Source: Cyanidioschyzon merolae
Lineage: Eukaryota
Assembly: GCA_000091205.1 (NCBI GenBank)
Contig: AP006499.2
DNA: 64,000 nucleotides
Direction: 5' to 3' (one strand)
Below the pieces are notes generated by a model that saw only the letters and a list, made by a program, of their open reading frames with translations, did not search any database and had not been told where the DNA came from. Positions 14,832 through 54,140 of this stretch are shown one piece after another. The stretch's first letter is position 1. Every line of letters starts with the position of its first letter. A program made the position numbers and the translations under genes.

Positions 14832-15489
14832 AAAGCAAAATGGATGGCGGTCTCCTGCAAGGCAATATCGAGAGGCAGGTAGCCTGCTAAGTCGCGCGCC
14901 GTTTGCGCGGCGCGTTGCTTTCGCAGCGCATACGAGGCTCTTCACCGAGGCTATTTGTTAGTTGATCCGTCGCCTGCGAGCTTGCGCAGTTCTGAGGTTA
15001 CGGGCGAAACGCCTCCGACAGCATGATGGATACGAAAAGATTTTGCAGACGCTACTTTGAGAGCGAGATTGTTGCTCATGGCTCTTAGCAGAAACCGTGA
15101 AAATGTTCCTTGGCGCCGTTCGTTGCACCGATGTCAGACGATAGTCTTTCAGTTGAATTTTGTTTCAACCTCAATGCAGTGTATAGCAGTAGATCGAAAT
15201 TACTGTGCAATGTACCCTATAGATCGTGTACGATTTGTCTGTAGGATATATTCTTTATTAAACAGTGCAAGCAGATCTGCATTCCTCATTCAGCTCTATC
15301 ATACAACGGTGTTCAGAATGTTGAGGAACACCGAAAGGAAGAGTTATATGCGCTCCGCGCCGAAAACCGATCTGCCCAGAGCGTGCCTCCGGTCAAATGT
15401 AGAAAACGATCCTTTGATTACCTTTTACGGAAGGCAAAATCAACGACAGTAACAGCTGCGGGTGTCTCTGTTGCTCTACAGCTTGTTTT

Positions 15490-16048
15490 TTGGTTCTGAA
15501 ACCCCCGCGATACAGCCGCGAAAAAAGCGCCCTAGTTCATTCACGGCCAACTTGCACAGAAATCGCAATAACGGAATTCCTGGAACGTCGCGATCGATAT
15601 GGAGCACATCTACGTCGGTTTGATTTTTCAGTCGATGAGACTGCCTTCGGAAGAAGCTGTCGGAGCGGTTATGTGTATTTTCGGAGCGGAGCGCCTGTTG
15701 TATGTACGATCGAACTCGAAGAGAATGACGACATCATCATTTGTTCTAGCCGCCGTGGATTCATTAGGCGGCCTCAGTTTCGCTCGTAGAGAAGGCTCGT
15801 CCAACAGCGACCACCGCCTGGAGTCATTGAAAGCATTTCCCCTGACGTCTGGCGAAATACTTCTACTGGACCACGTTGCATTCAACTATCCCCAATGCGT
15901 CCGAGCCTTTGGTAAATCTATCGAAGTACAGCTGCTTTTCGTTCCCTCTTTCTCTCCGGGGTTCAACACCATCGAAGGGGAGATTTCAATCGTGAAACGT
16001 AATAATCGCTCCACTGGACGAATCGGTGGAGCCTTCAGCACACGGTGA
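15490..16048 (+). pseudogene. Tc1/mariner (IS630-Tc1-mariner, DDE_3) transposase relic, frameshifted.
   Basis: Two overlapping ORFs in different frames. The first carries the first-Asp region 'FDFSVDETAFGR'. The second carries 'ILLLDHVAFNYPQ' (the DNA-x-H block) and 'FVPSFSPGFNTIEGEISIVKR' (the LPPYSPDLNPIE...W..K block). Homologous peptide fragments recur at 17.1, 30.2, 45.6 and 47.3 kb. Confidence 0.7.
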
Positions 16049-16099
16049 CACGTCGGGACACATGTCGTCATGCTTCCGCGAGTCCTTCTCCCTCCGGGA

Positions 16100-16600
16100 A
16101 GGTCCTCACCAAAGGACATAAATAAGTGCATTCATTTTCTAAAATAAATTACCTAAAGAAAAAGCATGGATATGGAAGTTGAGGATCCTTGGGGGTCGTC
16201 ATCGGTGGCTGCCGGTAAAAAACGAAGAAAGTCACTTTTTCCCGATCATTGAGCACAGAAGAGAAAGTGAAGAACAAAAAGAAGAGGGCAGATAGGCGAG
16301 AAGAGGTATTTGCAGGACAGGACGACGACGAGACCCTGGTGACACGGAGGGCACAATTTCTAGCAATCCTTGCAATGATGAGTTCAACCAGCGGCAACTC
16401 ACGCAAGGAGTTTGTGAGCCGAGATTTCAATGTCGCCATCATTATCAGACGTTGTGTCGTGCTGAAGACGAGACCCGACGAGCTGCAGCGATCCTACTTC
16501 GCGAGGCAGCCTCTCAGGCTCTAAGTGTGCTGTGCAGAACTGAAGCCGAGAGCAGGTGGCCGGTCGAAAATGGCGGGGAGGCGTCTGTGAATGAGTATAT
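16100..16600 (+). mobile_element. Truncated 3' fragment of a TnpB/Fanzor-like element: the RuvC-III coding tail plus a conserved downstream non-coding segment.
   Basis: ORF 16249-16524 ends with 'FVSRDFNVAIIIRRCVVLKTRP', to be compared with 'FVNRDFNAAVNIRRYAVLENRP' at 53.6 kb. The downstream 'aggtggccggtcgaaaa...gaggcgtctg' is conserved with 53790-53850. The upstream 'gtgcattcattttc...gcatggatatggaag' is conserved with 31300-31350. Confidence 0.6.
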
Positions 16601-17099
16601 ATATACAGTTTTTGGCCGTGAGAAGTTTTTGCTTTACATGAAAATGTAAGATGAAATACTCGCTATGTTCCTATTTTGCGTTATTTTCGAACTGTTTGAT
16701 TAAATGCACAGTCTCGACATTCGAATTGCACCAGTAAATGCTTACGGATTCATAGGCAATTTTGGGATCCTCCGTCTCCCTTCCGGAGGATGTTCTTTGA
16801 CGCTTCGCAGCTGGAACTCTTGACGATCTCGGAATCGAGATGATTTGCGATGCACTCGAACAAGCAATCGTAAAATAGCTGATATGGTTATCCATTTCAT
16901 ACGTGCAAGCATATAGTCTTCTCCGTTCCGTATGTGCAGCAAGCTTACATCACGCATGTTTAAAGATTTTCTTGCTTCTATTTCAACGCAATTTGCTGGC
17001 GCAGCAATTTGCGTCGTTACATTGACGCAGAAAAATCATGATGTAGTTCCTTAACGACTTCTGCATTGGCTTACATAGAAAGTTTAATGAAACCATCAC

Positions 17100-17500
17100 G
17101 AAATATAATCGCATCCGTTCGAACGAGAAATCCTCCTTTCATGGTGGCCATCGACGAGACGTCTTTCGATATTAGCGAAATACCTTTCACGGGAAATGTT
17201 TTCAGAGACGTCGGTGCTTTCTGTTTGCGCGGAAACTGATTTTGAGCTCGCGCTCCAGTCAGAGCAATGATCGATTTCAGTGGAGAGATTGTCAGTGCTT
17301 CACACAAATGGAACGTAGACAAATCGAAAAGTCTCGATATTCCCACCGATAATTTTTTCATCAAGGACAACGCACCGTTCGACAAATCGTCTATTATACG
17401 GAACAGCATGCACTTGCACATGCAGCCGAAGGAGTACTTGCTAGCGGATCGCCAAGCTCAAGCCGATGATCGAACGGAAGGAGATAGGGCTCGCTAACGG
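17100..17500 (+). pseudogene. Tc1/mariner DDE_3 transposase relic, fragmentary and frameshifted.
   Basis: Plus-strand peptides 'MVAIDETSFDISEIPFTGNVF' (first-D block) and, in another frame, 'FFIKDNAPFDKSS' (DNA-x-H block). A conserved 'AIDILRLLTTELEGYERP' motif follows about 640 bp later at 17740-17830. The same spacing is seen at 30.2 to 30.9 kb. Confidence 0.5.
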
Positions 17501-18456
17501 AAAAGGTCACTCATGCTAGCCGCTTGTACCCGTCCAAAACATGGAGTGAACAATGAAGCATGCGTTTATGCGCGTCATGGTGGCTCTCGGAGGAGGTTTG
17601 GTGGATACACACGTAAACCTGAATAAAGCCATGTGTACCCGTAGAGAATGTCGCCACAAGGCTGGATACATGGATGCTGAAAATGACACGAGATGTGCAG
17701 ATCGCAGATACAATATGGCTGTGAAATGCATGAACAAGAGCCGGAAATTGCGAAATCAAGACAAACGCGCTGCCATCGACATCCTTCGATTGCTGACAAC
17801 GGAGCTGGAGGGGTACGAGAGACCACGAGTTTTTATAGCCAGAGATAGTAAAGTGGAAATGGAACAGTCACCGGAAAGCCCTCAAAAGCTGGTTTTCATG
17901 AGAGTTGGTAGACGCTCAACCTTAAGAGTATACTCCCGAGATAGCTGGGTGGACCAGTTCCATTTTAGTCTGCCATCGGTGCGAGGCCGAGTCAGGTGCA
18001 CTCAGATCTTACGAGTTTAAAGCTCCATCCAAAGAGGCAAATATCGGAAATGTTTCTGTTGTTTTCACTGTAAAACCAAGCTGAAAGCAGAAAATCTGAT
18101 CATTCCAGACACGATTCAGCATTTGAGGAGACGTACGTGATACGTGACGTGAACACTGGGCCTCGGACGGCAGGTCTACCGTTGTTAAAAATCGCGGACG
18201 AGTATCCGTGGGTCAGTTGCCAGCAGCAGCTTTCCCAGGTAAATACTCAGATCCATGAACACGATGTGTTACAGCTGGAGATTCGCTCAGAGCAGCTATG
18301 GATCATGGTCGTTGAAACGCAGTACAACTCTGCCTTCTGTTGCGTTGTCCGCGACGGCCCACCCAGTAGTTTCTAGAGGATTTTAGAAACTTACATTTCT
18401 CTATGTTGGATGTCAATGGTACCGCACAAGGTCTCCTGGGTCCAGAGGCTGTCTTT

Positions 18457-19302: not shown

Positions 19303-19469
19303 GAGAGCTTAGTCGGTCGCTTGTGACGTGGGATAAAATCCCGTACGAAAACGACGACTGGAGCGAATGGCTCTCGAGCCGACGCCCTCAACCGTGCGGC
19401 AATGCCATTCGGTCGCGGTGATGCATCCACACGGGAGCTACTGGCGCTATCGCGGGCGATCACTGTCGG

Positions 19470-19560
19470 CACTCGGGGCACGATGGAATGTATGAAGCGA
19501 CCAGTATATCCGAGAAGAAGTATGAGTTACGGAACTTGGAAGCAGGGAGTTTGATGGATG
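19470..19560 (+). repeat. Short ~90 bp conserved module 'ggcactcgg.gc..gat.g.a...tatccgagaagaagtatgRgttaYggaacttgga'. It is also the 5' module of repeat copies at 26398-26500 and 51131-51235.
   Basis: Direct sequence comparison of the three loci. Non-coding. Confidence 0.55.
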
Positions 19561-20810
19561 CTTCACTGCGCGCTGATATCAAGCACACTGTCGGGGAACG
19601 CATGCCTGTGTAGACGTTTTGCCCATTGTAAAAAACCTGTGCGAGGTTCCAAAGTCTACCATATGCGATGCCGCATTTATACTTCTTCCCAGCCTCGCTC
19701 GGTTGCGCTGGTGCGGCAGCAATTCTGCGTAGACATCGAGCACTAGTGTGCTATCTTTCCATCCTCACACGATCCGTGTGTGTGACCAAACTCCCAGGGA
19801 TCCGCGGATGCTGCCGGGAATCTTGGTATGGATCGGGCGCTCTTAGGGGATTTCTTCTAAAACTTAGGATTTGTACATATGACCAGACCTGCTTGGATGC
19901 GCACCTATCGATGACAACTTTGTCGTGGATCGAGCGCTCCATTGCGGGCAGGTCACGTACAGGCCATTGAACGAATCGATCCAAGGCGTTTCATACAAAA
20001 ATACGTTGAACTCGCCTGGATAGTTGCACAGTCGCCAAAATCATAACACAGAAATGCGCAGCCGCGAAGATTTTCTGGCGGTGTACAATCGGAGCAAGTC
20101 TGTCCATTATTGTAACGGCTGCGACTTCACGCGTACAGTTCATCCACATGGGTTCCAACCGTGTCGCGAGTCGCTGTCCTGGAGCGGAGCAGCAAAGCGG
20201 AACAGGAAATGCAACATGTACCGGCGAACAAGCAGTGCAGATTGCCTCGCGCAACACGATGATAGTGGTGAGGCTTTCGAGTCGTCCGGATTCGGAAAGG
20301 TGACGTCCCCCTCCCAGCAACTTCAGAGAATTTGCTCGCTGCTTGATCCAGCCGGCGATCATTTAGGAAAACGCGCATTCCGGATCCAGACCACTGGAAA
20401 TATAGCAAAAGGGACTGAGTTCAAGCTCTTCCACCACAAGACCGGCGGTTCACTCGAGCATAATCAAGCTAGATATGCTATTCGACAGAGAGCTCCATCA
20501 TTTTTAGGACTCAGGGAGACCAGCTGGAGGCTGCCTCTCTCTGGAAAAGCACCAGCACGCAGGACTGGTTCAAAAGCTACCCATGTCAAAATTCGCGTTA
20601 TGAAACTGAGCTGAAAATCAGCTCATCTGAACGAAGGTTTCCACGCTCAATTGGCCCATTCAGCAAGCCGCTCTGAGCAACCAGCTAACATTAAAGTCAA
20701 AAGTTGTACCATTTTCGTTGTAAACGCACACACGCCGCGAAAGCGAGTTCGTCACATGCGCCATTCGAGTGCTCACACACCGCGTCTCCTCCAGAACTGC
20801 AGTTGGCCCC

Positions 20811-25610: not shown

Positions 25611-25940
25611 AACACAACCTGTTGTGCTCGCTGTCTATTCTCGTTCTCCAGTCGAACTGAATGAAAGCTAAAAGGCATCGCGGATGACAGTCGGACAGGA
25701 AACGCTCGACAATGAACCCTACCGGCTGACCGCAGCGATGCGAAGCGGCGCATCAGCGTACAGGCGCGATCGATCCCCTGAGCGCCGCGCGCGGCAGCGA
25801 AGGGTTCATGCGCCGCTGCTCGCCGCGATGCTCGCATCCGATCCGTTCAGAACTGTGGATAGAAAGCATGATCTAGTTTGTGAATATATGTCTATTAATT
25901 GCATATTATGTACTGATTCTGGTTGATAAGTGGTTTTTTC

Positions 25941-26585
25941 GATGACAAAAAAATTCGTTTCCATTGGCTATGGATCCCTGGTTGCGCGATGGATAATGGT
26001 ATTTGAAAAAGCGTCGATGATGAAGCACCTATGCTCAAGTTCCATTACCCACACTTCCTCTCGGATATACTGGTCGTTTTTTACATGCTACCATGTGCTG
26101 AATGCCTGCCGTGAAAACCCTCCGTGGTGCTTACACCCCTGGAGCAGAGCCATCACGGAGACAGAACGGCGTTGCCATCCGACTAAAGGGCGTCGTCTGG
26201 AATTGTCGTTCACCCGACATATGGTCGGGATTCGGGATCATTCTGTGAGCCTGCATGCTGTGCAGACAGACGTACTGCCCGAGGCAGCGCGAAGCGATAT
26301 ATAAATAGCTCACTGCGACCAGGGCGATGTCCTCAGTCGGATGGCGCAGCTGTTCTGTCTCCGTGATGCTTCTGCTTTAGCGGTATGAGCGCTACGGCAG
26401 GTGCTCACGGCAGGTACTCGGCGCAAGATAGCATGTACAAAACGGACAGTATATCCGAGAGGAAGTATGGGTAATGGAACTTAAAGGTAGGTGCTTCATC
26501 ATGGACGCTTTCCCCAAGGGCATTATACATATGCCGAATTCTGGGAAGCATGTTCAATGTAAAAGTTTTGTCATCGAAAAATCAA
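25941..26585 (+). repeat. Copy B of the non-coding dispersed repeat family, rearranged.
   Basis: Shares the 'cgatgacaaaaaaattcgtttccattgg', 'ggatatactggtcgtttttta' and 'cattctgtgagcctgcatgctgtgcagacagacgtactgcc' blocks and the 5' module 'tatccgagaggaagtatgggtaatggaactt' with the other copies. It contains a perfect 19-bp internal inverted repeat, 'catcacggagacagaacgg' at about 26150 against 'ctgttctgtctccgtgatg' at about 26350. It ends with an inverted copy of the 'atgacaaaac.tttacattg' block at 26555-26580. Confidence 0.65.
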
Positions 26586-29546: not shown

Positions 29547-30129
29547 CAAGATCCGTGAAGAGAGACGCTACATTCCGGTATGGTTGGAGAGATACAATAG
29601 GATTTTGCTGGGAGCCGAGATGCCTGCAAAGGCGCCGCAAAGCTGCTCTGCGTCCATGTGAGAACTGCAACTGCAACGCATTCACCGTTGTAGCGAGCGC
29701 CCTGCGGAAGGCTCGACCCCCGACTGGGTCACTATACAAGTCTCAGATAAAAATGGAGCATTGAACTGCTAGCACTGTTGCTAGCGTTCAATTTTTAGCC
29801 CAATCATTTCTTAGATGCGCATCCTCCGCACTCAAACTAAAATAATAAAAGTTTACAGGTTCACTCGTGGTTTTTTTAGATTCTCGTTCGTTTTTCCGTG
29901 GTAGCTTGTTCGACTCTTTGTTGCTGGAATGCGTTTCTTTGTCGAAATCATAATGATTCACGACGCCATTGAACAAGGGTTCGTAAAGTACCCGATTATA
30001 TTATCCAGTTGATACGTCCAAGATTCCATTTTTCTCCTTTCTTTGCGTCTAGTACGATGAAACAGCGCATTCTTCAAGTGTTTGACCTTTCTGCTTCAAG
30101 ACAGCTGGAGCGCGTAGCAACTTGCACCG

Positions 30130-30400
30130 CTGGATTGACGACGACGAAGAAAATTCGACATCGTCCCTTGAATAGCGTTTCGTAAACGCACGCCAAACGC
30201 TCACTGAACCAATCACAGCAAGTAATCGATGCGGTTCGAAAAGCAAGTCCTTCCCTCTTGATCGCCATCGACGAAACGGGATTCCGCCGCAATTATAAGC
30301 TATCTCTCACGGGACACGCTCCCAGAGGCACCCATCTCATTTTCCGCGCGGAAAAGGTTCTTGGACTAGAACTAGAGTCGTCGCTGCGATCGCTTCCACT
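30130..30400 (+). pseudogene. Tc1/mariner DDE_3 transposase fragment.
   Basis: Plus-strand peptide 'LLIAIDETGFRRNYKLSLTGHAPRGTHLI' (first-D block). The motif 'MNILLLLKTELEGQEN' follows at 30890-30990, matching the same spacing seen at 17.1 to 17.8 kb. Confidence 0.5.
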
Positions 30401-31259
30401 CGGGATTCCGTCACCGCTTTGAGCCTGGGGGCGTACACGGATCGAGATCTCTCGAGCGCTTTCACAACCTGGAGCTTCCTTCTGGTACTTGTTTCAGCAT
30501 GGTCAACATAGCGTTCCGTGAATCCTCTATCGAATAGAACAGCGAGCACTCGGGCGCGCAGCAGACATAGTACTCGCCAAGTAGTCACCCAGCTCAAGCA
30601 CGTCATCGTAGAGTTCGCCGTCGGACCCGGAAACGGAGGAGCGAACGGACAGGACCCTTTTCTGGCTGTCAAATTGGCATGTGCCGAACGATGAAGAAAG
30701 GGTTCATGATCTGCAGGGCGACCCTTTGAGGAACAGTTTTCGGGTATATCGGGGAACACTTGACCACAATCAGATGTCATCGCCGCGATGAGCGCACCGC
30801 GACTTTACGCGAGGAAGACGCAAATGGCAAGCAAAGCGTAGATCGCCTCTCCCGTTCGAGCATTAAATGCGTGAGCAGCAGCCGGAAGCAGTGAAATGGT
30901 GGCTTTGACACTGCCATGAACATCCTTCTACTTCTGAAAACGGAGCTAGAGGGACAAGAGAATTCTGCGTTGCTACAGGCGCATATGAGAGAGACAAGGG
31001 AAGTAGTCAAACATCATGCCCACCAAGACTGGTATTGACGAAAGTGAGAAGCGACCCAAAGCCTAGTCTTTTCTCCCGAGTTAGAGGGTCGGTCCTCGTT
31101 TGTTCAGAAGTGAGTGTAGATCTGCCTCCACGTTGGGGGCCTATTAATGAAATGATTCATAATCCGCGTCCTCCTGCTGGCAAACCTGCTCTTTCTACTT
31201 ATGGTCTATCACCTCAATTTAGTTCCAATCTCAGGTGAGCGTCATCGAATGCTTTTTCG

Positions 31260-31700
31260 CAGTTTTCAGCAGGAGCATTGGAGTGCATTCATTTTGAAGG
31301 AATGAATAATCCAAGGTGAAGCCATGGATATGCAGGACAGAGATCCTGTTGTCCCAGTGTTGCCGTATACGACCAATAAAACGAAAAATCTATTTCACGC
31401 GAACCATCGAGCGAAAAGAGCATAGAACGAACAAGAAATAGAACTGGGGAGATGGGCGATAAAAGGTGTTTGCTGGACTGGACGATGCCGAGACTGAACT
31501 TGCACTGAATACACGAGTTCGATGAGTCCCTGCATTGATGAGTTCAACCTGGTTCAATCAATACAAGAGGTTCACGCAGCGTGACTGCAACGCTGCTAGC
31601 AGTATCAGACGATATTCGATGCTCAAGACGGGACGCGAGGAGCTGACACGATCCACACTTGTTGGACAGCCTCTCAGGATTGAAGTCTATGGCGAGATGC
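31260..31700 (+). mobile_element. Second truncated TnpB/Fanzor-like 3' fragment (degenerate RuvC-III tail plus conserved flank).
   Basis: The 5' boundary block 'gtgcattcattttgaagg...gccatggatatgcagga' is shared with 16113-16190. 'gcattgatgagttcaacctgg' is shared with 16375-16395 ('gcaatgatgagttcaaccagcgg'). The peptide is 'FTQRDCNAASSIRRYSMLKTGRE'. The downstream 'gacagcctctcaggattgaagt' matches 16503-16525. Confidence 0.55.
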
Positions 31701-34279
31701 TGCAATTGATAGCATACGGCAAGTCGATATGGGCTGAGATGCATCTCTCGGGTGGATGCTCATTGACCCTCTATGGTCGCGGAACGTTTGCGATGCATTG
31801 TGCATCCTGGGGATCGCTTGGCGTCTCGCTCGAGGAAACTTCGCCTAGCCTCCTTCGCATTGATGCAACTCGTCAGGCAACTATTTCCAGTCTCGAACGC
31901 GGGGTTGCGAGCGGTCCACATTCCCCTGAAATTTTTTTTACCAAACCTTCGTGAGACACGACAACTAATTTTGGGATAAAGTATGGGATCCGGCTTGATC
32001 CTCGGATCAGAGAATATGATACATACGCTACTCTGAATCCCTCGGCACGACGCCGTACCACGTCGCTAATCAAAGCATGTACTTCGCTGGTGCGAACAGT
32101 ATCAGACCGACCTAAAACAGCAATATTGCGTGCTCGTCAACGCCGAGCGTTACTTCAACCGCACCTTTTGGGTGCTGTAGCCCTACTTTACTGGCTCGGA
32201 AAATTGGAGACTGATGAAACGGAATCTTGGGATGGCGATGGAAGCAACTGACTAGCTCGTGGTGGAAGACATCGAAGTAGCAGAGAGTTCGGAACAGATG
32301 TCGCAACGATACTTAGCGTCCCGTCAAATCGTCGATGTTTGTCGTGATGATCTCGGCCACGGAACGACGAACCTCTTACTCAAAGGATGGTGAAAAGGTG
32401 ATGCACCCTTCATTGCATCTTGCGCTGCCATTCGTTCACGAATGGAGTTATCCAGAGCCAAGCTTACCCTCCCTTCGAATCAGAGCACACCAGCCGCAAC
32501 ACGCGTCTCTTTGGTGTGGTTCTCGTACGGTACATCAAGACCCAGAAAATAACTCAAGATATTTGCATAGTGTACTGAATAGCCTCCTTCGCGAGCTATA
32601 GCTCGAATTTGCGAGCAAGTATCAAGCATTCGAAAAAGTTCGCCAAGGCTATTGGGAAAGCTTGTCCAAGCATTCTGTTTCACAGAAAGGAATTAGATAG
32701 AGGATGAACGGGTGATGGAGACCAACGGAATACACATCTGAAAGAACCATGTGAAACTTTAGCCTAACTCGATCGCGGAGACTCATTTCCGACCGTAAAA
32801 GGTAGATGAAGCGCAAGAATTCGCGGTAAGTGGGAAACCCTGCTTACATTAAAAACGTGGTAGTCTCCATATCTCTCAATCGCCGGGAACGGAGCCAAAG
32901 ACCTGAACGGAAATCGGATGAAGCTGCTCATGTCTTGTAGGGCTCGGTATTATCGGGAGCCGGGCGTGATGTCCAACAGATGGCGTTCGAACAAATGGAG
33001 CACCAGCATAGTCGGAACCCGTCACGACGCTGCAAGCATCATATCAAGCTGAGTTGGATACATTTTGAGCCTCGCTCAGAGGGCATTTTAGCTCCCAGAT
33101 AGCTTATGAGCGGAATTTTTGGCGGGCATACATGAAAACGTGCTGGGGCCGCCAACAGATTCGGTTGTTCACAGGCCATAGGCTTGCATGAGCCAAAATT
33201 TTCAATCACTTTCAAAATGAAATGAGCGACAAATCGGGACGTTTGGTTGAAGCCTACGGCGCTGGACGTGATGAGGCGCACATGCGCTGCGCTTGTACTC
33301 CTTCGGCGAGAGCATGTAAAAATTGTGGGAATTTGATTCTGCATCGGTCCAATTGCCGTATTCAGGACGTCATACTCGAATCACGAGCACAGGTGTACGG
33401 TTGAACTGGAACAGAGGGAGAGAGTGAAGCAAAGCCGGATGCATGAGATGGTGTCCAATAAACTGACCCAAGCTCAAGTGGCGAGGCATTTGACGGTGAG
33501 ACGCTTGTGTCTTGTGATTCCACCAGCAGCAAATGCGCAAAATAAGTTGCTGCTCTGAGCCTTCAGCGTCTTGATCAACTTCCGCATTTGTCTCGTGCTT
33601 CTGAAGCGTCCAGTGGCTTTCTGTCGAGTAAACTTTTAGGGGAATGGAATAGAACTCAGCGTTGACATTCTGCAGAAATGCTGTAGGCTTCCAACGAAAA
33701 AATAGGTAACCAGAAGAGTGGAGACAGGATTATTGGGACGTGCATGGCGCTGTTGTGCTAGGGTCAGCAATTAGGAGAGGTGGGTGCTCCTTCTAGATGC
33801 ACTGGGACGGCTTTCCTCGGTAACTGGTGAACGATTATCATTTTACATGGCATTCATTACTGAGTATACTCAGTGTTGAAAATGAACCGGATTTCTACGT
33901 CCTCAGTTCAGAGAGTGAATCCAAAATCAGCCTTGCTCCCTAAGTGTTGTTATTCTTCAACGTCTTGATGCCGCCCCCGTAGCCACATACGACGTGCAGG
34001 ACAATCCCATCGAGTACTGGAAGCTGGCACCGGATCGCAGCAGCGCACGAAGCGATACACCAAGCAAGGAGACCTGCACCAGTAAATGCGGCTGGCGAGG
34101 TAATCAGGACAAGCTCGCCATAATGTGTATGAATGTCTTTCACAAAAGATACCTGCATAGGTGCCGAGCAAGGAAGCTGCCAACGCTTCTACTCTGTCGC
34201 TGCCTTCACGCTGTACATATAGAAGTCAATCGCCGGCATCCAGCGGCTTTCACGAGTAGAGCCCTGTCACGGATTCAGC

Positions 34280-37473: not shown

Positions 37474-38290
37474 TCGATGATAAAATTCGGTTGACCATGG
37501 ATCCCAGATTGCGGGACATATAATGATGATTGAAAACGCGTCCATCTTGATGCATCTTTCTTCGAGTTCCATTGCTTTCACTTTCTTTCGAATATACTGG
37601 TCGTTTTTTACTTTCTATCATGTACCGAGTGCCTGACTGCGCCCACAGTAGCGCTTATACCGGTGGAGCTGATGCAGCACGGATACAGAACAGCTGTGTC
37701 GTACCACTGAGGGTTTCGGATCGAGGAACGATTCACCTGATACGGAATCAGTGCGGACAATCATTCTGGGAGCCTGAAAAGTGGGCAGAGAAACCTGGTG
37801 CCTGCAGCAGCGCGGACCGATATGCTAGGAGATAATTGCAATATTGGCGACGCCCAGACGCAGTATCCTAGTACTTGTCTAAGAATAAAGAGTGTTGCCG
37901 ACAAGCTGTGCAGGTCTCGCCACAGCACCTGCCACTCGAGGGAGTATGAAGCACTAGCCCGGCAGACCCGTCCGGTTCGCGGGACCTTCCACACAGAAGG
38001 TAAAGTTTCGAAGATACGGAAACCTTTCCCCCTTCAACGCTTTCCATGAAGGTCGAAAGAACCTGTTATTGAGTTGCTATTTAGTGGTTAGTTTCTGTTC
38101 TTTCGACAGTGGATCGGGATTCGCTTTCATTCTGGGAGCCTGCAGACTGCGCAGACAGACCTACTGCCTGCGACAGCACGGAGCGATACGCAAGGAATCC
38201 ACTGCGACCCAGACGACGCTTAGACGCAGCATATCAGCTCCTAGTCCCAGAATAAACTGCGTTCCAGACAAGCTGCTCAGGCCGCACTAA
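37474..38290 (+). repeat. Copy C of the non-coding dispersed repeat family, carrying an internal tandem duplication of the ~190-bp 'cattctgggagcctg...tagtcccagaataaa...gacaagctg' unit (about 37737-37930 and 38125-38290).
   Basis: Shares the 'tcgatgataaaattcgg', 'cgaatatactggtcgtttttta', 'tgcctgactgcgcccacagtagcgc', 'ggtaaagtttcgaagatacggaaacc' and 'gttgctatttagtggttagtttc' blocks with copies A, B and D. The ORFs called here (37156-37581, 37229-37480, 37798-38049, 38069-38290) are not conserved between copies. Confidence 0.7.
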
Positions 38291-42762: not shown

Positions 42763-45539
42763 CTGACGAGGGCAAGCAAGCCTTTAGGAGCCTCCTCAGT
42801 AGGAGGCTCTCTATCTCGTGACGCAAAGATCAGCGGCGGAAACCCGAAAACAGAATCCGCCTGTTTGATGCGGTACAAGGCATCCGGTATTCTGGCGGTT
42901 GCCCGGCACACGCCTGCGCTACGTCCGAGATGCTTGTAATGCTTTCGCTGGGCAAGGAGGCTGTATTTTGAAAGCTTTCAATTTAAAGTGTACATTTACT
43001 AATTTTTGTACCACGTACCGCTAAACTTCGTGCAGGTTATCTTTTTCAAGCAGTTTGGTGTCAGATATGGCAGCTAAAGTGAGCAAACCTTCTATATGGA
43101 AGATGTTGGCGATCGTCGTTCCAGGAGAAAGTTTTTGATCGAGTTGCAACGGCGTAGTGGTGCTGGGAACGATAACTAACCGTTTCGCTTCGAACTTGAA
43201 CGGCGAAGTAACCACAGTGTTTCGTTTTGGGCGCTTGCATGGAATATTTTATGATTCAAGTTCCCATTGGAGGTGAGACTTTTTACTCAGTGGCAAAACG
43301 CAAGGAGGCCGAGCGGCGACTCGCGCGCTTGGCCTCAGAGTCACCAGGGAGCAGTGCCGATTCTTCTGTCCTCGGCTCCAACGTACCCGCAACGCCAGGA
43401 CTGGAACGAGCTGGAGACGTCTCGTTGAGTCATGATGAAGAGGTTTCTAGCGAAAAACCGAAAAAATGGCCCCGAGTATGAGAAGCTTGCCGCACGGAAA
43501 GCGCCATGCTTGCGGTGCCGTTCACATGGTAATATTAGGTGCTTTCGCGTGAACGCGGTTGCCCTGCCATGTTTTTCATAGTGGAGCATTCCTTAGTCAA
43601 TCAGGAGATACAAGGACACAAGAACAATGCTGGTACTCAGGGTGTGGGTTCCAAAGCGGCATATGCGCCGTTTGGATTGTATCACGTCACAACGGGACTG
43701 GGCGTATGCAGAGATTGCAGCATACATGAACGCTGCCGTTGACCAGAGATGAAACCTCAACTACCGACGAGTTATCGGAATGCAGCACCTGCTGCTGCCC
43801 TGAGCAACACGTCCTACCCCGTTGCTTGGTCAAATGTTTCGCTCGTTTGCATGAGGAATCCTATCTGGATTGCTCTTGTCATGCAGACATATTCAGCAAT
43901 ATCCAATAGCGGAACCCTAGTACAGCTCACCAGTTGTGCGGGAAGATCGTTCCCAGTACATACGTATGGTGCTGGAGCCTCACCAGAATCCTGAACGCAC
44001 CACGCGAGACTCCATTGCCCCCTTTCCTGACCACTGAGTTTTTTCCATCGGAAGTCGTTAGTGTTTCAACGCAATGCCGAAACTGGGAACTGAACGATTC
44101 CATAGAAACTTTGCTCGACAGAGCCGGTTAACGCTGTTTAGCCCCGAGAAATTTCCGGAGTTTACTCGATTTGTTCAAGTTTCGGTGGAGAGAGTGCATG
44201 CGCGCATGGTTGCTGGTGGAATCAGACCAAAGCATGCCACTCACCTTCGTTTACCTCACCATCTGAAGGTCGGTTGTTCTGGAGTGACGAAAAATGGCGT
44301 TGTCTACGAGCCGGGCAGCATAGCGTGGAGAGGAGAAGCCACGAAGTGTGTTTCTCCTCAGGATGAAGTCGTACGCGATCCTGCACATGTCGTATTTCGT
44401 AGGTGACCGCAGTATTGAATCGCCGTACGCGCAAACATTATCGGGAAACACACTTATCCCTTCTGTACGAACACCATTTTACTCTTCGTTGGCGACACAT
44501 ACATAGTTCTAAGCTTTCTCTCGAACCAAGTCTCATCGAACGAGAAGAGCATCCGTCCTTAACGTAACAAGAGTTCGCGCGTCAGAATCGAATCCACTGT
44601 GTATTGTTCAAGGCGCAACGCTCTCCCACAGACGCACTCTTTTTTTCCTCGGCCATCCATGTCTCTTCTTCACCGCTCGTATTGACAGTGCGAAAACCAC
44701 AAATCATGGAACTGGGTTTTTGATGTTTCTCAGAGAACGCACGAACAGGACTGGAATGACCTGGAGAGAGTCGTACAGAGAAAATTTGCTGAGTTCTATG
44801 TTGAGTGCGCGACGTTCAGACTAGGGACACAGCAAAGACTGCTTCAACTACTTGCTGAACATTAATTGGCTGACTTGGATAAGTAAACCCGTTTTTCGAT
44901 AGGTAGCGGTGATTCCATGACGTCTCCCCGCGATGTTTCTCCGCCCAAACGATACACCCTTTTCGAAGAATAGTCGGAAGAAAAAACAAAAACAGAAACT
45001 GCGTGCTTGTTCAAGAGTACTGGAATTCACTGCTCACCGAACATAGCAACGAGACTTGTCATGGCGAAAGAATCTAAGGGCGTGTCAGATTAAAACAGAC
45101 CACTGAACTGGGCGCTCTGTTCATCGCTTTCGATTTCCGAACTGTTTCATGTACAGCCCCGACATTTGATGCGCGGTTCGAAGAGCTTACGAATGCATAT
45201 ACTTTTAGAACTCTATGCTGACTTCTCGGAATGTTTACTTCGATGCTCTTCTACTGGAATTCGTGACATCAGTGTAATCAAGATGATTCGAAACGCCCCC
45301 GAACAATGGTTCGTGCACTAAGCAACGTCATTATCAAATGAATACGTACATGCCTCGACTGTTCTCCTTTGCTTACGTGTCGCCAGCTTCAATCAAGCAT
45401 ACTTCAAGGTTCGAAATTTTCGTTCCGAGCTAACTCCTGTACGTTGCGATTCTAGCGCCTGACTTGATGATAAGAGCGACTCAACGTCGTCCGCTGAGAA
45501 CTTTTCTGGAAGCTCATACGGAAAGTTCATTCAAGTTTT

Positions 45540-45620
45540 GACATCAAATTCTCGATTTCGCTCGAAAGACATATCCCTCCCTCTTGATGGCCATCGACGA
45601 GCCGGCATGAGTGAGCACGA
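45540..45620 (+). pseudogene. Very short Tc1/mariner DDE_3 first-Asp fragment.
   Basis: Plus-strand 'SLPLMAIDEPA', to be compared with 'LLIAIDETGF' at 30240 and 'MVAIDETSF' at 17130. Confidence 0.3.
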
Positions 45621-47179
45621 TGCTACATGTCAAGCAATATGATTCCAGAAACTCCCGTTTTTCTATCTGGATGGACAATTGGTCTTGGATTTGGACTTCA
45701 GTCATCACAGAGAACCGTTTCTATCCAAGGTACACCTCGGCTTTGCACGAAGAAGCTTAGGCTAATTAAAAAGTTCCCGGCACGGTCTCCAGTCTTTGTT
45801 TTCATTCTGATACCATTTTTAGGGAGAACAAGATCGAATTCCACGAATCCTTAATGGAAAAGAAGAGCGAGCGCTTCCACGTGCAACGGACATAGTCCTC
45901 CCCGAGCCAATCGCCCAGAAGAAATCAGGAATCTTAGAGTACGGTGCTGGACGCGAGAGCGGAGGAAACATCCAATGAAGCTTTCTGTGCCTATCAAGCG
46001 AACGCACCAACTGATGAAGAAAGCATTCACGTGCCGCAGCGCTGCGCTTCGATGAAGAGAAGGTGCGGTGGACGCATGGGAAACCGCACCCCAGCCCAGC
46101 GTGACCGGTGCGAAGGACACACCGAAGATGTACACAAAGCAGATGAAAATAACCAGAGGATCCCAGCTGGCAACGATCGTATATTTATGAAACGGACCGC
46201 CAACACCGGGACGCAGTGAATTCCGGATTTTGAGGCTGCCATCAATGTATCTCGACTGCTAAAATCGTAGCTGGAGGCACAGCAGAAACCAGCGCATTAG
46301 AAACTGAAGATAACAGAGTCGAAAAGGAAGCAGTGGTAGAAAGGATGCACAAATGCTAATGCTGATGGCAGTGGGAAAAGAATCAGAGTTTCAGACGAAC
46401 GCTAGACTTCGACAAGGCGATGCATTTCATTCGATCCAAACAGTTCAGTACAAAATATCAGTGAAATAGAAAATGTCCCGCGACCATGCAGGATCAATGA
46501 GCACCCACGGATAGATGCCTCCCAGGCTTTTTTGACCCGCTGTCTGCTATCGGTTTCAGCTTCTCACTGTACGCTTCGAGCGTGAGGGGATGTCCAACAA
46601 AATTTGGACCCCCAGCTCCTCGGGTCCCGTCTCCAGCACCGCATATCGTCTGATACTGATGGCGGCGTTGAAGTCTCGGTTCATAAACTCCATACGTTTT
46701 GATGCCTCTAGTTGATCTTATCAATGTGCGTATTCCCCGAGCTCGCGCTTTCAGTACCATTTGCTGCTCTGCCAACTCTCCGTGCGTGTCCAATGCCGAA
46801 GCGCTCCGTTGGCTTCTCTCCGTTACGGCCTTCTGAAGCGTACATTCCTGCTCTTTCCATAAGTTTGAACATGAACGCACTTCCTGACGCCTTTAGATGA
46901 TTACTTCCCCGGAGAGAGACGGACTTGCTGAGGGACTATGACATGTATTCCCCGTGTGTCACCGTGTGCTGAACGCATTAGCGATTCGCCCAATGGAGCG
47001 ATCACTGCGTACCAAGATAGAAAATACTCATAGGATGGGGTTGAACCACGGAGCTAACGGAGCAATGGAAAGCAACTGTATCCCTATAGAATTCGCAAAA
47101 GCTCGGGCGCAAGGGGAACGATGAAATGCAACGTTGTCCGATAGAATAGCGTCTCCAGACCTGCAGAGCAAAAGTCTTC

Positions 47180-47460
47180 AATTATTCCACAATGTGGAAT
47201 GGTGTTTTCTGAGCCTTCTATTCGAGTTCGATCGTACATTTAACAGGTTAACTGCTCTGCAAATACCCGGATAAGTTGTGACGGTTTCGTCCGAAGGACG
47301 TCTCATCGACCGAAAACATAAATGGACGTCCCTGTGTTTCATACCGATCGTAATGTTCCAGGAACGCTGTCGTTGCGATTGGAAGGAAGATGCCATTGCT
47401 TGAACGATGACTCTTTTTGAGATTGTATCCCAGTGTTTTCAGGATCATAGGCGCGACTTG
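47180..47460 (-). pseudogene. Tc1/mariner DDE_3 transposase relic, minus strand.
   Basis: ORF 47248-47448 (-) reads '...TAFLEHYDRYETQGRPFMFSVDETSFGRNRHNLSGY', which is near-identical in motif order to '...TEFLERRDRYGAHLRRFDFSVDETAFGRSCRSGY' at 15.5 kb. Confidence 0.55.
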
Positions 47461-48333
47461 GTGAGAAACAGAGACGCCTGTGGCGGCTATTATCGTCGCT
47501 GTTGCTTTCCGAAAATGGTGATCAACGGATCGTTTTCTAAGATCGACTGCAAGCGACCTCTATGAATATCGATCTCTGGCACGGAGTGCATCTACATTTT
47601 TCTTATAGTTTTCGCCAACCATCTGAGTACGTCGGTATGACTGTCCTAAACGAGGAATGCAGTCCTCCTTGGACTGTTCAGAAATGAATGTAAATGCTAC
47701 ATGCAAATCATCTACGATCTACACTATGCATTGCATTGCGATTTCGATCTCCTAGACATCGCAGCGGAAGTGAAACAGAATTTAGTACAAAGACTACAAG
47801 AACGGAAACCTCGGGCCTCTTTGATGGTAGCGTTCACGCATCCGATAGATGCCAATATGACACATCTGGTGAAAAAGCAGCTAAACATTCGCGTCGATTC
47901 GTTTTCTGGGTCTGTTCAGGGCATGGTGCTGGCATGTGCGTGCTGGCACTCACCAGCACTCACTGAACGTTGCTTTGCAGTCGCGAAATGCGAAAGCATC
48001 CCGCTCCAACGCGAGTTCGCGGTGATGAACTTGTCTTCAGCATCGCTTCCAAAGTCCGAATGCGACCAGCAAATGCCTCTTCATGGGAAGCTTGCGGCAA
48101 ATACCATCTCAGTTTGACATGGATGAATTCGTGCTCGACATTTCACGAGTGCAGCGCAAGAGGTCAATTCACTGTCCGCTTACACCTGTGCATGCGACGG
48201 CAACATAGAAACCGGAAACGAGTATTCTGCATTCACAGGAAATACCCTGCAGCATAGGCATCTGGATCCCATCCAATCGTTCAGAGCGCTTTTCCGCACG
48301 GCGCTGCTGAGGGCGCACTGATCCGTAAAACGC

Positions 48334-50398: not shown

Positions 50399-51130
50399 TA
50401 TCCAGCGTTATACACAACAATGAAACTGCGAGTTGCAATCAAGTAAGAACGCAAACGTTCATGCAACACGAACGGAAAAATCGTTTCGTGATCATCGACG
50501 ATGGGCGGCAGCGTGCTCGCGATGCAGGGCTTCGAAGGATCGCGGCGTTCGGTGCAGCGGAATCGGGATGCCAGAGACGCCAGCACACTTAACCTTTCTG
50601 TGCCTGTGCTGGAAAAAAAGAACGCAGCTATCTCTTTGAGAGACATCAACATCTGGGAATCACTGTGGTAAATGAAGGCCAGCCACTTACTTTGAGTGTA
50701 GTGCTAGCAACTGATGGTCCCGTAACTGAGCTCCAGCACTCACCAGTTGTCAGCGAACTCATACTCTACCCCCTAGGTGGAAGGTCCAGCGAACCAGATG
50801 CGCACACGGGACCAGTGTTACGCGTACCTAATCACTGGTGGGTGCCAAGCACAGACCCGAGTCGCCAACCGACGGCAACGCTTTCCATGTACGATCACGC
50901 AGGAGAGAGGCGGCTCCCAGGATTCATCGTAACAGCCAAGTTTCTCCAATGTGTTGTGAAGCGAAAGCAAGTTTTGCATCCGCAGGCTGTCCGAGCACAA
51001 ACTGACAACGAGACCCAGTTCTACGTCAGGTGAAGCATGCCTCGAGCAGACGCCGTCTGCGGTACGGCAACGCCGTTCTGTTTCTGTGCTACGACAGCAC
51101 CGGCGCTACAAGCGCTATTGAGGCGGATGT

Positions 51131-51985
51131 TCACGGGCAGGCACTCGGCGCCCGATAGCACGTCTGAAACACCATTACATCCGAGAAGAAGTATGGGTTA
51201 TGAAACTTGGACGTAAGGCGTGGAATGACGAAAGTTCCACCGCGCGCAGGCATCAAGCGCACAGAGTCGCGGCACGCTCGCCTGTGTGAGAAGTTTTCAC
51301 ATGGAACAAAATCCGCTGCATTTGCTGTTGCCGCTGATTTTTCTCCAATGACAAAACGTTTACATTGTACTTGGATTCCAGATAGCGAGATGGATGGGTA
51401 TAGCTGATCGAAAAAGTGTCCATCATGATGCACTCTACCTCCATGCTCCGTTCCTTATACTTCCTTTCGGATGTACAGATCGTTTTGTGCGTTCTGTAGT
51501 GCGACCGAGTGCCTGCTTTGGGCACCCGCCTTAGCGCCTATACCACTGGGACGGATGCATCATGGAGATAGAACAGCGTTGCCATACCACTGAGGGCGAC
51601 GGATCGAGGAACGCTTTACCTGATACAGCGTTGGAGTCCAGAATAATTCTGGGAGCCTGTAGGCTAAACAGACAGAACTTTTGGCTGCGAAAGCACGAAC
51701 CGATATACTAGGAGTCTACTGCGATCTGGGCGACGACCAAACACAGCATCCCGCATCTAGTCCCAGAATGAACCGCGTTGCGGACGAGCTGCTCAGGTCT
51801 CGCCACAGCGCCCGCTACTGGGGGGAGCACGAAGCACGAGTCCGGGAGACTCGTCCGGCTCGCGGGACTTTTCGCCTAGAGGGAGGATTCTTCAGAATAT
51901 GGAAACCTTTTCCGCCTTTTCAAAGTTTATCGTAGAAGGGGAAAGAAATTGCCGTATCGTTGCTCGCTAGTCGTGAGTCTCTTTT
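51131..51985 (+). repeat. Copy D of the non-coding dispersed repeat family (the most complete copy). It lies immediately upstream of the TnpB/Fanzor-like reading frame.
   Basis: It contains the 5' module 'ggcaggcactcggcgcccgatagc...catccgagaagaagtatgggttatgaaacttgga'. Further blocks are 'atgacaaaacgtttacattg', 'ggatgtacagatcgtttt', 'cattctgggagcctgtaggctaaacagacag', 'tagtcccagaatgaaccgcgttgcggacgagctgctcaggtctcgccacagc' and 'ggaaaccttttccgcc'. It ends about 225 bp before the first in-frame codon of the Fanzor-like frame (52211). Confidence 0.7.
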
Positions 51986-52210
51986 CTTTGTTCAACATAG
52001 CGCAGTCGATTTGCGCACCAGGGAGATCTGTCAGTTTCGAGTCACGACGCGTATGCTGCCGTTGAAGGGAAACGCGATCCTGATCAATAGCGTGCTGCTC
52101 TAATGTGCAAGTTGTACTTGCGTTAAAGACGTGGCAAAGTACAGTTCTTCAGTTCATTTGTGTTTCAAACCTCAAACAAGTGTATTCAACTGTTTTTTCG
52201 CAGTATATAA

Positions 52211-53776
52211 CTGAAGCGTTCAAAGTCCGTTACAAAAAATAAAGAAGGAAAGTCATGGAAAACCAAGTCGACGATCCTGGAGGCCCAGTGTGGCTGGCCG
52301 CCAGAAAAAAAACAAAAAAATAGTGCCGAGTCCAGAAGAAAGCGAAGTGAAAAAGAAGCATTAGGGGAGGCTCTACGTCGAAGGCAGCAAGAAAGACGTC
52401 TGTACAACGAGATGGCGGTGAAAGCCTGTCTTCGTAAACATACCAAGGATCCGTACAAGGAAAAGTTGCGAGGCGCTATCAGAAACCGTGTCGAGTTCTA
52501 ATCCATGAGTATTATAAAGGCGTCATCAGTACGAATGCATTTGGTGTCGGAGATGTACGGAGACGTGACGCACATGGAAACAGTCGAGGTTCCGGATGCG
52601 TTTTCCGACAAGACTTCTATTCGTCACCTGATGCTTGGTACAGGGGAATCGTCGACGAAAAAAGAGCTAGTCCATGCCTTCCACGAAAACTTTGCAGATT
52701 TCCGCTTCGAGGGTACTCGATACAAGGGTGACGGAAGTATTTACACATACGGGGCGATGAAGTACATCACGAACCTGAGGAACCATTTGACTATGAACCC
52801 GGAGCGTTTCATGATACGCACCGTCTTTGCGCTGTACCCGGGACTGTCTCGCAAAGGAGTATGGGCGATTATCAATGGGATCACGAACGATCGCAAGCAT
52901 GAAGATGACAAGGAGGCGGATCTCGCGACGAAGAAAGTGCAGGATAACGACTCTGTCGTTCACGCGGACCCTGGGAATACGAATATCATAACCATCGCAG
53001 CACCCAAGCGTGGGGAAGATGGTACTGACGGTACCTTGCGTCAGAAAGATATGTGTCTTTTGAGGTTCTCGAGAGCAAGATACTATCGAGAATCCGTTAT
53101 AATGAATGCGAGAAAGAAAATCGACACATGGAATGCAGGAATGAAGGATCACCTGGAAGCTTTGAGGGAGGTGACGAGCCACGGGGCGGACTTTACAGCT
53201 TCTCGGAAATTCATGGAAGTTCGTGTTGCTCATTGGGATGCGCTGTAGAAAGAATATACAAAGCCCCGGCGGGCTCGTTTGCGTATGAATTTGTATTGTG
53301 GGAGGCAGCGTGCATTCGCAATCTTTTTCAATGAGTTGCGTGCCCTGAAGGAGGACGAGCGTCAAAGTCTCGTAGTAGCATACGGAGCAGGGCGCTGGAA
53401 GACCCAAAAAGGATGTACACCAGCTCCAACGACAAGAACGTACAAGGAGTGCGCACGGCGTTTTGTTACGGTGCCTGGAGATGAGTTCCGAACATCGTAT
53501 GTGCATCATGAACTGTGATGTACGCTTCAGAGAGTGGAGATGGAAAAGTGCCAGAGGAGCCCTGAGGATATAAAAAAGTACGGAGCGCTGACAGATGAGC
53601 AAATGGAAAGGAGGGCGAAAGTTCGAGGATTGCTTGCATTAGTAAGTACAACCAGTGATGGCAAGAAACGTATGGAATTCGTGAATCGTGACTTTAATGC
53701 CGCCGTCAATATAAGGAGATATGCGGTGCTGGAGAATAGACCTCCAAAGAAGACACAACAGGACTTAATTGGATAA
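52211..53776 (+). pseudogene. TnpB/Fanzor-like (OrfB_IS605-type RuvC RNA-guided nuclease family) gene, about 520 codons in one frame. It is interrupted by three in-frame stops: TAA at 52498, TAG at 53246 and TGA at 53516. It is probably a decaying element gene, though I cannot exclude very short introns.
   Basis: All three ORF-track segments (52505-53248, 53279-53518, 53534-53776) and an upstream segment (52211-52497, '...KRSEKEALGEALRRRQQERRLYNEMAVKACLRKHTKDPYKEKLRGAIRNRVEF') lie in the same frame. Motifs: RuvC-I-like 'VVHADPGNTNIITIAAP' (compare GIDxGxxN); RuvC-II region 'LVVAYGAGRW...YKECARRFVTVPGDEFRTSYVHHEL' (compare IvxEdL...YKA...V.VdE.yTSk.C); RuvC-III 'MEFVNRDFNAAVNIRRYAV' (compare D-x-N-A-A-x-N-I). 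The zinc-finger region is degenerate. Confidence 0.6.
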
Positions 53777-54140
53777 TCACTCAAGGTGGAATTATATGAG
53801 ACAATATTGGAAGCGGTAGTAGGTGGCCGGTCCAAAAAACTAAGAGGCGTCTGCACGTCAGCTGAAGATGTCTAGTCTAGGGCGGGTCACTCGCCGCTAT
53901 TGTACACGGCCGCTGGTGGCAACGTTTTTCGTTTGAAAGGCGTTTGCTGTCTGTCGATCGAAGCCACCATAGGCTCACACCTAACTAGAAGCCCCGGTTT
54001 GAAACTGCATAGGCAGCGTATAGAGATCCAAATCGTCGACAAGCCACTTCTTCTCAATGCTCGCGAGCGAGCAGTTGCAAGTATTTGGAGGACACACTCG
54101 CTCGAACTAACGCACCTGTCACTGCGAGCGGTTCCACATC

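Follow-up and report, generated by a model that had tools for sequence, protein, structure and literature searches.

Fanzor remnants and their setting

The window, the whole 64-kb stretch of Cyanidioschyzon merolae 10D nuclear DNA that was analysed, holds three remnants of a Fanzor gene, which we label A (at 16.1 kb), B (at 31.3 kb) and C (at 46.9 kb, on the minus strand), together with a longer element, F, that serves as the in-window reference (Table 1). The other long open reading frames (ORFs) in the window are ordinary eukaryotic genes, encoding a Brr2-type helicase, an EZH2-like SET protein, TTI1 and ALG9, and two window ORFs are identical to the C. merolae 10D proteins BAM82065.1 (mannosyltransferase) and BAM82067.1 (chloroplast sulfate-binding protein). 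Old repeats are clustered in the intergenic stretches.

Table 1. Repeat-derived features of the window (a slash marks the boundary between the TA and the element)
Feature	Position	Strand	Basis or remarks
A, 5' terminus TA/GTCTTTCAGTTGAATTTTG... and leader	15142-15205	+	About CMe-1A consensus 786-865; profile 120-184 at 15121-15184 (nhmmer)
A, type 1 Tc1/mariner (IS630)-like DDE_3 transposase pseudogene	15206-16125	+	Pfam, tblastn
A, motif GTGCATTCATTTT, junction of transposase gene and Fanzor 5' UTR	16126-16138	+	CMe-1A position 871
A, Fanzor head (5' UTR, ATG at 16166, first ~60 codons, stops)	16139-16342	+	nhmmer, CMe-1A, translation
A, Fanzor tail (last ~80 codons, RuvC-III relic SRDFNVA) and mini-specific 3' segment	16344-16646	+	3' end approximate
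B, 5' terminus TA/TGGTCTATCACC... and uninterrupted leader, without transposase gene	31200-31282	+	nhmmer; alignments with F, L005, L012, L040
B, motif (31283-31295), ATG at 31324, Fanzor head	31283-31502	+	Alignment, translation, nhmmer
B, Fanzor tail, deletion junction as in A	31504-31806	+	3' end approximate
C, 5' terminus (47796), leader, type 1 transposase pseudogene	46962-47796	-	Alignment with A, tblastn
C, motif GTGCGTTCATGTT (46880-46868), very short head, tail	46455-46880	-	nhmmer, CMe-1A; 3' end approximate
F, CMe-1A element (TE-N2_CMe part and Fanzor1 pseudogene)	51348-53952	+	570-bp internal deletion, one frameshift, three in-frame stops
Type 2 repeats, four copies	1640-2860, 16716-17950, 29860-31100, 45180-46310	+	Consensus: DDE_3 fragment and TnpB/Fanzor C-terminal region
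TE-N2_CMe, solo copies	5132-5764, 19373-19563, 25940-26576, 37475-38281, 51025-51215		77-86% identical to first ~635 bp of CMe-1A

F is a copy of CMe-1A, a C. merolae element with about 150 old copies that are about 80% identical to a 3169-bp consensus (Bao & Jurka 2013, PMC3627910). As published, CMe-1A has no inverted repeats, its duplications are undetermined and it is unclassified, and its first 635 bp equal the repeat TE-N2_CMe (PMC3627910). The consensus, taken from the supplement of that paper and mapped onto the window, matches F, A, B and C at the nucleotide level (F at positions 3-1553 with 83% identity and 2124-3169 with 87%), and a map made by nhmmer with a DNA profile from 14 full-length metagenome Fanzor copies agrees, placing all four in one homologous family. 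The Fanzor pseudogene of F (52255-53776) displays RuvC-I (DPGNTN), RuvC-II (DEFRTS) and RuvC-III (NRDFNAAVNI) motifs, and its relatives in the protein collection are about 560-750 aa long and up to about 80% identical. Pfam gave no match on the Fanzor proteins, and the identification as Fanzor is therefore based on these motifs, the published consensus and the homologues. Solo copies of TE-N2_CMe account for the other repeat family in the window; the copy at 25940-26576 forms an inverted pair, head to head, with 196-nt arms that are 80% complementary.

For comparison outside the window, hot-spring metagenomes were scanned, the copies of which (with L-numbers, like the environmental contigs treated further below) derive from Cyanidioschyzon-like populations and not from the 10D assembly; contigs 99.7% identical to the window are present in the same samples. 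The scan returned 79 Fanzor loci among the matches listed, and at least 364 of 600 scored stretches encode a Fanzor relative. None of the 79 loci is a duplicate of A, B or C. The search for further units covered the flanking sequence of these loci and contigs reached through ORFs that had been called on transposase relics.

An earlier, sequence-only reading had described A and B as fragments that begin at the same internal position of the Fanzor gene and share about 500 bp. In the window, the 13-mer GTGCATTCATTTT has zero-mismatch matches only at the two motif positions listed for A and B in Table 1, and C carries a variant with two mismatches. From the motif on, A (to about 16646) and B (to about 31806) are homologous over about 520 bp (blastn, 69% identity over 260 bp, E 2e-21; global alignment score 98 vs -320 +/- 21 for shuffles), and for the 200 nt 5' of the motif the similarity is not significant (score -113 vs -139 +/- 15 for shuffles). 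The similarity between A and B and its sharp left edge are real. The shared start and the extent of the homology thus stood, but the start is not internal to the Fanzor gene. In the CMe-1A consensus, the motif (GTGCGTTCTTTTT) has position 871 and the Fanzor ATG, 35 nt downstream, position 906; in A and B the motif lies about 40 bp upstream of the ATG, and the ~220 bp that follow it align with F, L005 and the consensus over their 5' UTR, start codon and first ~60 codons. A similar sequence, GTGCATTCGC, at 53309 in F had prompted the idea that the motif is part of the Fanzor ORF, which was rejected on the alignment of the ATG region, where the motif falls in the 5' UTR.

Internal deletions and the junction with a transposase gene

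In the nhmmer map, the head of A corresponds to profile positions 223-425 (window 16125-16342) and its tail to 2341-2588 (16344-16588), while the CMe-1A consensus matches at 869-969 (16124-16229) and 2839-3083 (16346-16587). B comprises profile positions 135-324 (31196-31389) and 2353-2607 (31516-31763), with consensus positions 2849-3012 matching its tail, and the tail of C covers profile positions 2243-2592 (46853-46507) and matches consensus positions 2739-3082. Blastn aligns A 16269-16526 with B 31429-31686 without gaps across the join between head and tail, indicating that A and B have one common deletion junction (A type), which joins about position 1070 of CMe-1A to 2836. The tail of C begins further upstream in the Fanzor gene than those of A and B, at another deletion junction (C type) that joins about position 920 to 2740. 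A, B and C are internally deleted "head + tail" Fanzor remnants. They are not 5'-truncated tails, as had been supposed, since A and B keep the 5' UTR and first ~60 codons joined to the last ~80 codons. The recognition of Fanzor C-terminal sequence was correct, with the RuvC-III region reading SRDFNVA in A, QRDCNAA in B and NRDFNAA in C. This region is all that A and B retain of the Fanzor core, and C has in addition what is left of the zinc-finger stretch that precedes it. The deletions took away RuvC-I and RuvC-II, and stops or frameshifts are present in all three copies, none of which has a complete open TnpB-like core, and we regard all three as relics and not genes.

Homology between A and C runs straight through the motif and about 0.95 kb further upstream (A 15188-16142 aligns with C 47753-46864), and this common stretch is a ~0.9-kb Tc1/mariner-like DDE_3 transposase pseudogene, termed type 1. 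In A, an ORF at 15599-16048 matches Pfam DDE_3 (E 1.3e-7), and tblastn with the type 1 transposase consensus spans 15246-16045; the corresponding span in C is 47693-46962. Every single type 1 transposase copy is broken. A majority consensus built on six relics reads through as 264 aa of uninterrupted frame and includes an HTH region together with the motifs VDETSF, LLLDN and NPIEG; it matches Pfam DDE_3 with an E of 3e-21, identifying it as a DDE/HTH transposase, and it has full-length homologues of about 300 aa at 35-48% identity. The same junction between transposase gene and Fanzor 5' UTR (.../GTGCATTC-like) is seen in the sequence of A, C, L070, L045, L080 and L072, and is placed by profile coordinates in L088 and L090; not one of these metagenome loci is a duplicate of window sequence.

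The leader of B extends 83 bp upstream of the motif, to 31200, in register with the 5' UTR of CMe-1A and with F, L005, L012 and L040, and the part of the leader that is absent next to the motif of A sits about 0.95 kb upstream, before the transposase gene. A carries the transposase gene where the leader of B continues, and A and B consequently diverge at the motif. The apparent breakpoint is the join of the end of the transposase gene with the Fanzor 5' UTR, A having the gene and B an unbroken leader. A recurrent truncation point, as the sequence-only reading had suggested, is at odds with a boundary that coincides with this junction in A and with no junction in B. Independent 5' truncations of Fanzor copies at one internal hotspot would fit the fact that A and B can be aligned exactly from the 13-mer, with the preceding 200 nt lacking significant similarity; however, with the motif outside the ORF, the leader of B continuing in the CMe-1A register, the missing leader of A recovered before the transposase gene, and A and C homologous across the point, we consider this explanation extremely improbable.

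Element ends, related copies and a second family

A TA-led 5' end, TA/CAGTCTTTCAG-like and more generally (C/T)AGTC-like, is found in A, B, C, L070, L080, L040 and L088. It reads TACAGTCCTTCAC in L040 and is degenerate in A, B, C, L070, L080 and L088; the 5' end of L100 is diverged, and L090 is without the first ~7 nt. By alignment, the upstream flanks of A, C, L070, L080, B, L040, F and L005 are unrelated, and L088 likewise starts after unrelated DNA. We take this shared 5' end to be genuine and to lie at about position 786 of the CMe-1A consensus, not at 871. The flanks had been proposed as a place to look for a TAM-like motif or a target-site duplication; none was found there, and the TA at the 5' end is the only flank feature that is shared. 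Comparison of 5' ends with reverse-complemented 3' regions and a repeat finder revealed no terminal inverted pair in A, B or C, the local alignments giving matches that are inconsistent among copies, and neither a TA target-site duplication nor a 3' inverted repeat was found for any of the three. One inverted match in A seen by hand (14/19, 16650-16673) was discarded, as it is absent from the other copies. The age of A, B and C, at about 55-74% identity, may hide inverted repeats.

At the 3' side, three multiple alignments agree only to about 50 nt past GGGAGGCGTCTG, and the 3' ends given for A, B and C are approximate. These copies stop near consensus position ~3085-3100 with a different end of about 50 nt, and the 3' end of CMe-1A (...GTTTTTCTTTTGAAAGGCG) is present only in F among these elements. 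The right boundary of A is ambiguous because the ~80 nt that follow its tail (16637-16715) also precede type 2 copies. Segments of this kind lie at 29760-29850 and 45080-45170 as well; they resemble the 3' ends of C, L045 and L070, and also precede the CAGTCTCGACATTCGAATTG-like start of the type 2 copies T2c and T2d. In full-length CMe-1A, the last ~90 nt of 58 copies hold a strongly conserved CCACTACTGTACAC block (e.g., 53870-53950 in the window and 8340-8431 in L005), followed by a terminal hairpin, which directly precedes the element end ...GGCG and exists in two versions, CGTTCGA-CTT-TCGAACG and CGTTTTTC-TTTT-GAAAGGCG, that could pair in different registers. RNAalifold on the 58 3' ends gave no consensus structure, and these hairpins were recognised by eye only, without demonstrated covariation.

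Units of about 1.5 kb, consisting of a transposase relic and a vestigial Fanzor gene, occur at 10 or more unrelated loci, those in the metagenome being L070, L080, L045, L072/L076, L088, L089, the L090 group (a single locus that recurs in ten samples) and L100. The A-type deletion is common to A, B, L040, L045, L070, L088 and L090, and the C-type deletion to C and L072/L076. A transposase-less form of about 0.6 kb (B type) is represented by two copies only, B and L040, which have the A-type junction and the same 5' terminus as the transposase-bearing copies, share one structure (profile positions 135/137-323/324 and 2353-2601/2607) and have unrelated flanks. The suggestion that B belongs to a non-autonomous sub-element with its own ends fits this form, with its common 5' terminus, although the shared motif is not the end of that element. 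The units are pairwise about 66-74% identical and the tails 55-68%, levels consistent with an old burst followed by neutral decay.

Two metagenome loci show further unusual arrangements. In L089 (15-1055), an internally deleted type 1 unit is followed by an inverted Fanzor head (profile positions 141-366, opposite strand). Positions 1-125 of L012 are nearly identical to window 31228-31352, that is, to the leader and head of B (blastn, 100% over nt 1-72); past about 125 nt, L012 switches abruptly to an ordinary full-length CMe-1A copy that is 84% identical to L005. This switch is either an assembly chimera at the contig end or a recent recombination of the locus of B with a full-length copy.

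The copies in the window are regularly spaced, with A and B 15,160 bp apart, steps of about 15.2 and 15.4 kb from A through B to C, and type 2 copies at distances of 15,117, 13,113 and 15,330 bp, as might be left by an old segmental or tandem duplication of about 15 kb in place of transposition. Self-comparison with blastn and tblastx, however, found no other sequence repeated at those offsets. Moreover, C is inverted, the 5' flanks are unrelated, and the same units are found at no fewer than 8 other loci with different neighbours, leaving duplication a highly improbable source of A, B and C.

The type 2 repeats likewise combine transposase and Fanzor sequence. Their consensus contains a DDE_3 segment (E 1.2e-10, profile positions 2-117 of 146) fused to a TnpB/Fanzor C-terminal region with VIVGYGAG, two CxxC pairs and NRDLNAAINI, and it scores 28.1 bits against Pfam Cas12f1-like_TNB (cut-off 26.3). 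In tblastn, type 1-related transposase queries do not match the type 2 repeats, single copies of which are too decayed to be recognised. We interpret type 2 as a second, independent deletion derivative with a transposase head and a Fanzor tail, from a family apart from type 1. This bears on the earlier statement that both A and B lie 3' of Tc1/mariner relics: the relic before B (29.9-31.1 kb) is of another kind than the one before A, namely a type 2 copy, with a Fanzor-like tail of its own, that ends about 100 bp before B. The related hint of a composite element was sound for A and C, in that the relic at 15.2-16.1 kb is in the same repeated unit as the Fanzor remnant, but not for B, the relic upstream of which belongs to the separate family.

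A type 2 unit comes after the type 1 unit in both A and L080, in the same arrangement, and a larger composite of type 1 and type 2, or an end sequence common to both, is possible. Directly downstream of B lies a much older Fanzor pseudogene, G (31815-32396 and 32882-33645, plus strand), that matches residues ~90-275 and ~437-692 of a distant Fanzor1 of the L085 type at 27-41% identity; L040 has a relic similar to G at 8263-9108. On the minus strand, at 44119-44244, lies a further, short relic of a Fanzor C-terminal region (tblastn E 3e-5 with the L087 Fanzor).

Ancestry, possible function and comparison with known elements

Three unrelated environmental contigs each carry a type 1-like transposase gene (42-45% identical) and, 190-225 bp downstream of it and in the same orientation, a Fanzor1 gene encoding 577-702 aa, the C-terminal half of which is 43-52% identical to the CMe-1 family. 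Terminal inverted repeats of 34 nt enclose one of these contigs, L087 (3384 bp). In the Mariner-Fanzor1 element PUl-1, too, the transposase gene comes first and Fanzor1 second (PMC3627910), and the PUl-1 transposase matches the type 1 consensus with an E of 1e-9 and that of L087 with 6e-22. These intact distant relatives, including the one enclosed by terminal inverted repeats, make it probable that the ancestor was a two-gene Tc1/mariner-Fanzor1 transposon. The Cyanidioschyzon-like data contain no transposase-bearing copy with a full-length Fanzor gene, and the two-gene ancestor rests on the distant relatives.

A different origin for the transposase gene would be a secondary, nested insertion, in which a Tc1/mariner element landed once in the Fanzor 5' UTR and the composite then spread. 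At the place of the ~0.9-kb gene of A and C, the leader runs on unbroken in B, L040, F and every full-length CMe-1A copy, and in L070 and L080 it is nearly complete on both sides of the gene, as this scenario would predict. The 0.9-kb segment, however, is essentially just the ORF, with no inverted repeats or TA duplication of its own, and distant relatives at 42-52% protein identity keep the order of transposase then Fanzor with similar spacing, one of them with both genes inside a single inverted-repeat pair and PUl-1 with the same layout (PMC3627910). We therefore consider a nested insertion unlikely.

The reading that we favor, and hold to be probable, is that A, B and C derive from a single old DNA-transposon lineage, a relative of CMe-1A, and have decayed neutrally. 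The ancestor would have consisted, in order, of a TA/CAGT-type 5' end, a short leader, a DDE transposase gene of about 295 aa, a spacer of about 200 bp, a Fanzor1 gene of about 700-750 aa and a 3' end. Internal deletions, perhaps arising by abortive gap repair, took most of the Fanzor gene and fused its 5' UTR and first codons to its last codons, and the copies may have spread by cut-and-paste through the DDE transposase, acting in trans on the B type. A and C would then be Fanzor-deleted descendants of the two-gene element, and B and CMe-1A transposase-less descendants. A counterpoint to this reading is that B has the A-type deletion yet lacks the transposase gene, with edges like those of full-length CMe-1A, which requires either a second identical deletion or recombination; the B type may be a form that lost the transposase gene, or a recombinant with a CMe-1A-like copy that had none. 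With about 55-74% mutual identity and many stops and frameshifts, all copies are now dead.

Nothing in the sequence suggests a present function for these copies, every one of which contains stops and frameshifts. Known Fanzor/TnpB systems have a guide RNA that overlaps the 3' end of the gene (PMC10530073), and some function, such as that of a guide-RNA (omega RNA) gene or a cis-acting end, might accordingly have preserved the Fanzor tail. In favor of this, the two independent deletions (A type and C type) both leave the last ~80-110 codons, and the type 2 family likewise keeps a transposase head and a Fanzor tail. However, deletion derivatives of DNA transposons as a rule keep both ends. The mini tails, moreover, have no conserved RNA structure (structure conservation index 0.10; alifold energy -9.4, within the range of shuffles at -3.6 +/- 2.2, minimum -9.7), A, B and C are without the two terminal hairpins of full-length CMe-1A, Rfam and tRNA scans gave no match, and all copies are heavily mutated. 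We thus judge a retained function of the tail to be very improbable.

A broader form of this idea starts from type 1 and type 2 as two independent lineages in which the multiplied forms kept the transposase part and the Fanzor 3' end only. If CMe-1 derives from a two-gene Tc1/mariner-Fanzor1 element, the Fanzor 3' region of the multiplied forms could carry a part needed in cis and not be a passive leftover; such a part could be the element end, or a guide-RNA template for a Fanzor protein acting in trans. We regard this as improbable.

What lies at the A, B and C loci are ordinary, dead derivatives, produced by deletion, of a transposase-Fanzor1 transposon lineage, and the earlier misreading is corrected to the extent that there is neither a truncation hotspot nor a TAM-defined sub-element at these loci. 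The genome that contains CMe-1, a family left unclassified in 2013 and described then as lacking inverted repeats, also contains relatives of it with a Tc1/mariner transposase gene and a TA/CAGT-like end, and these relatives tie this Fanzor1 family of C. merolae to Mariner-Fanzor1 composites already known. The Fanzor part has been known since 2013, and the link to a Tc1/mariner transposase and end appears to be absent from that report (PMC3627910). This is a modest addition on the origin of the family, and neither a new mechanism nor a new kind of system; it is of use for the transposon annotation of a model red alga, and the consensus transposase is open to resurrection.

Among known elements, CMe-1A shares genome and Fanzor lineage with A, B and C, the heads and tails of which align to its consensus. 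In contrast with CMe-1A, which has no transposase, A and C carry a DDE_3 transposase gene before the Fanzor start. All three begin at consensus position ~786, without the TE-N2_CMe-derived 5' 635 bp that F has, and about 1.7-1.8 kb of the Fanzor gene is missing from them, as are the ~70 nt that end the consensus. MITE-like deletion derivatives resemble these copies in keeping the ends and losing the middle, in the occurrence of one junction in several copies and in the existence of a ~0.6-kb transposase-less form (B and L040), but the B type has no demonstrable inverted repeats or duplications and is known from two copies; a published MITE survey reports none in C. merolae (PMC3964958). The PUl elements differ in having clear inverted repeats of 24-33 bp, TA duplications and intact Fanzor genes (PMC3627910), whereas in A, B and C only the 5' TA/CAGT-like end is seen, the Fanzor gene is vestigial and all copies are degenerate. 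The likeness to PUl-1 and PGv-1 lies in a transposase gene followed by Fanzor1 on one strand, a DDE protein of about 300 aa and a TA at the 5' boundary (PMC3627910), and, as illustrated by the Fanzor-only PUl-4 (PMC3627910), transposase-less derivatives exist in both groups.
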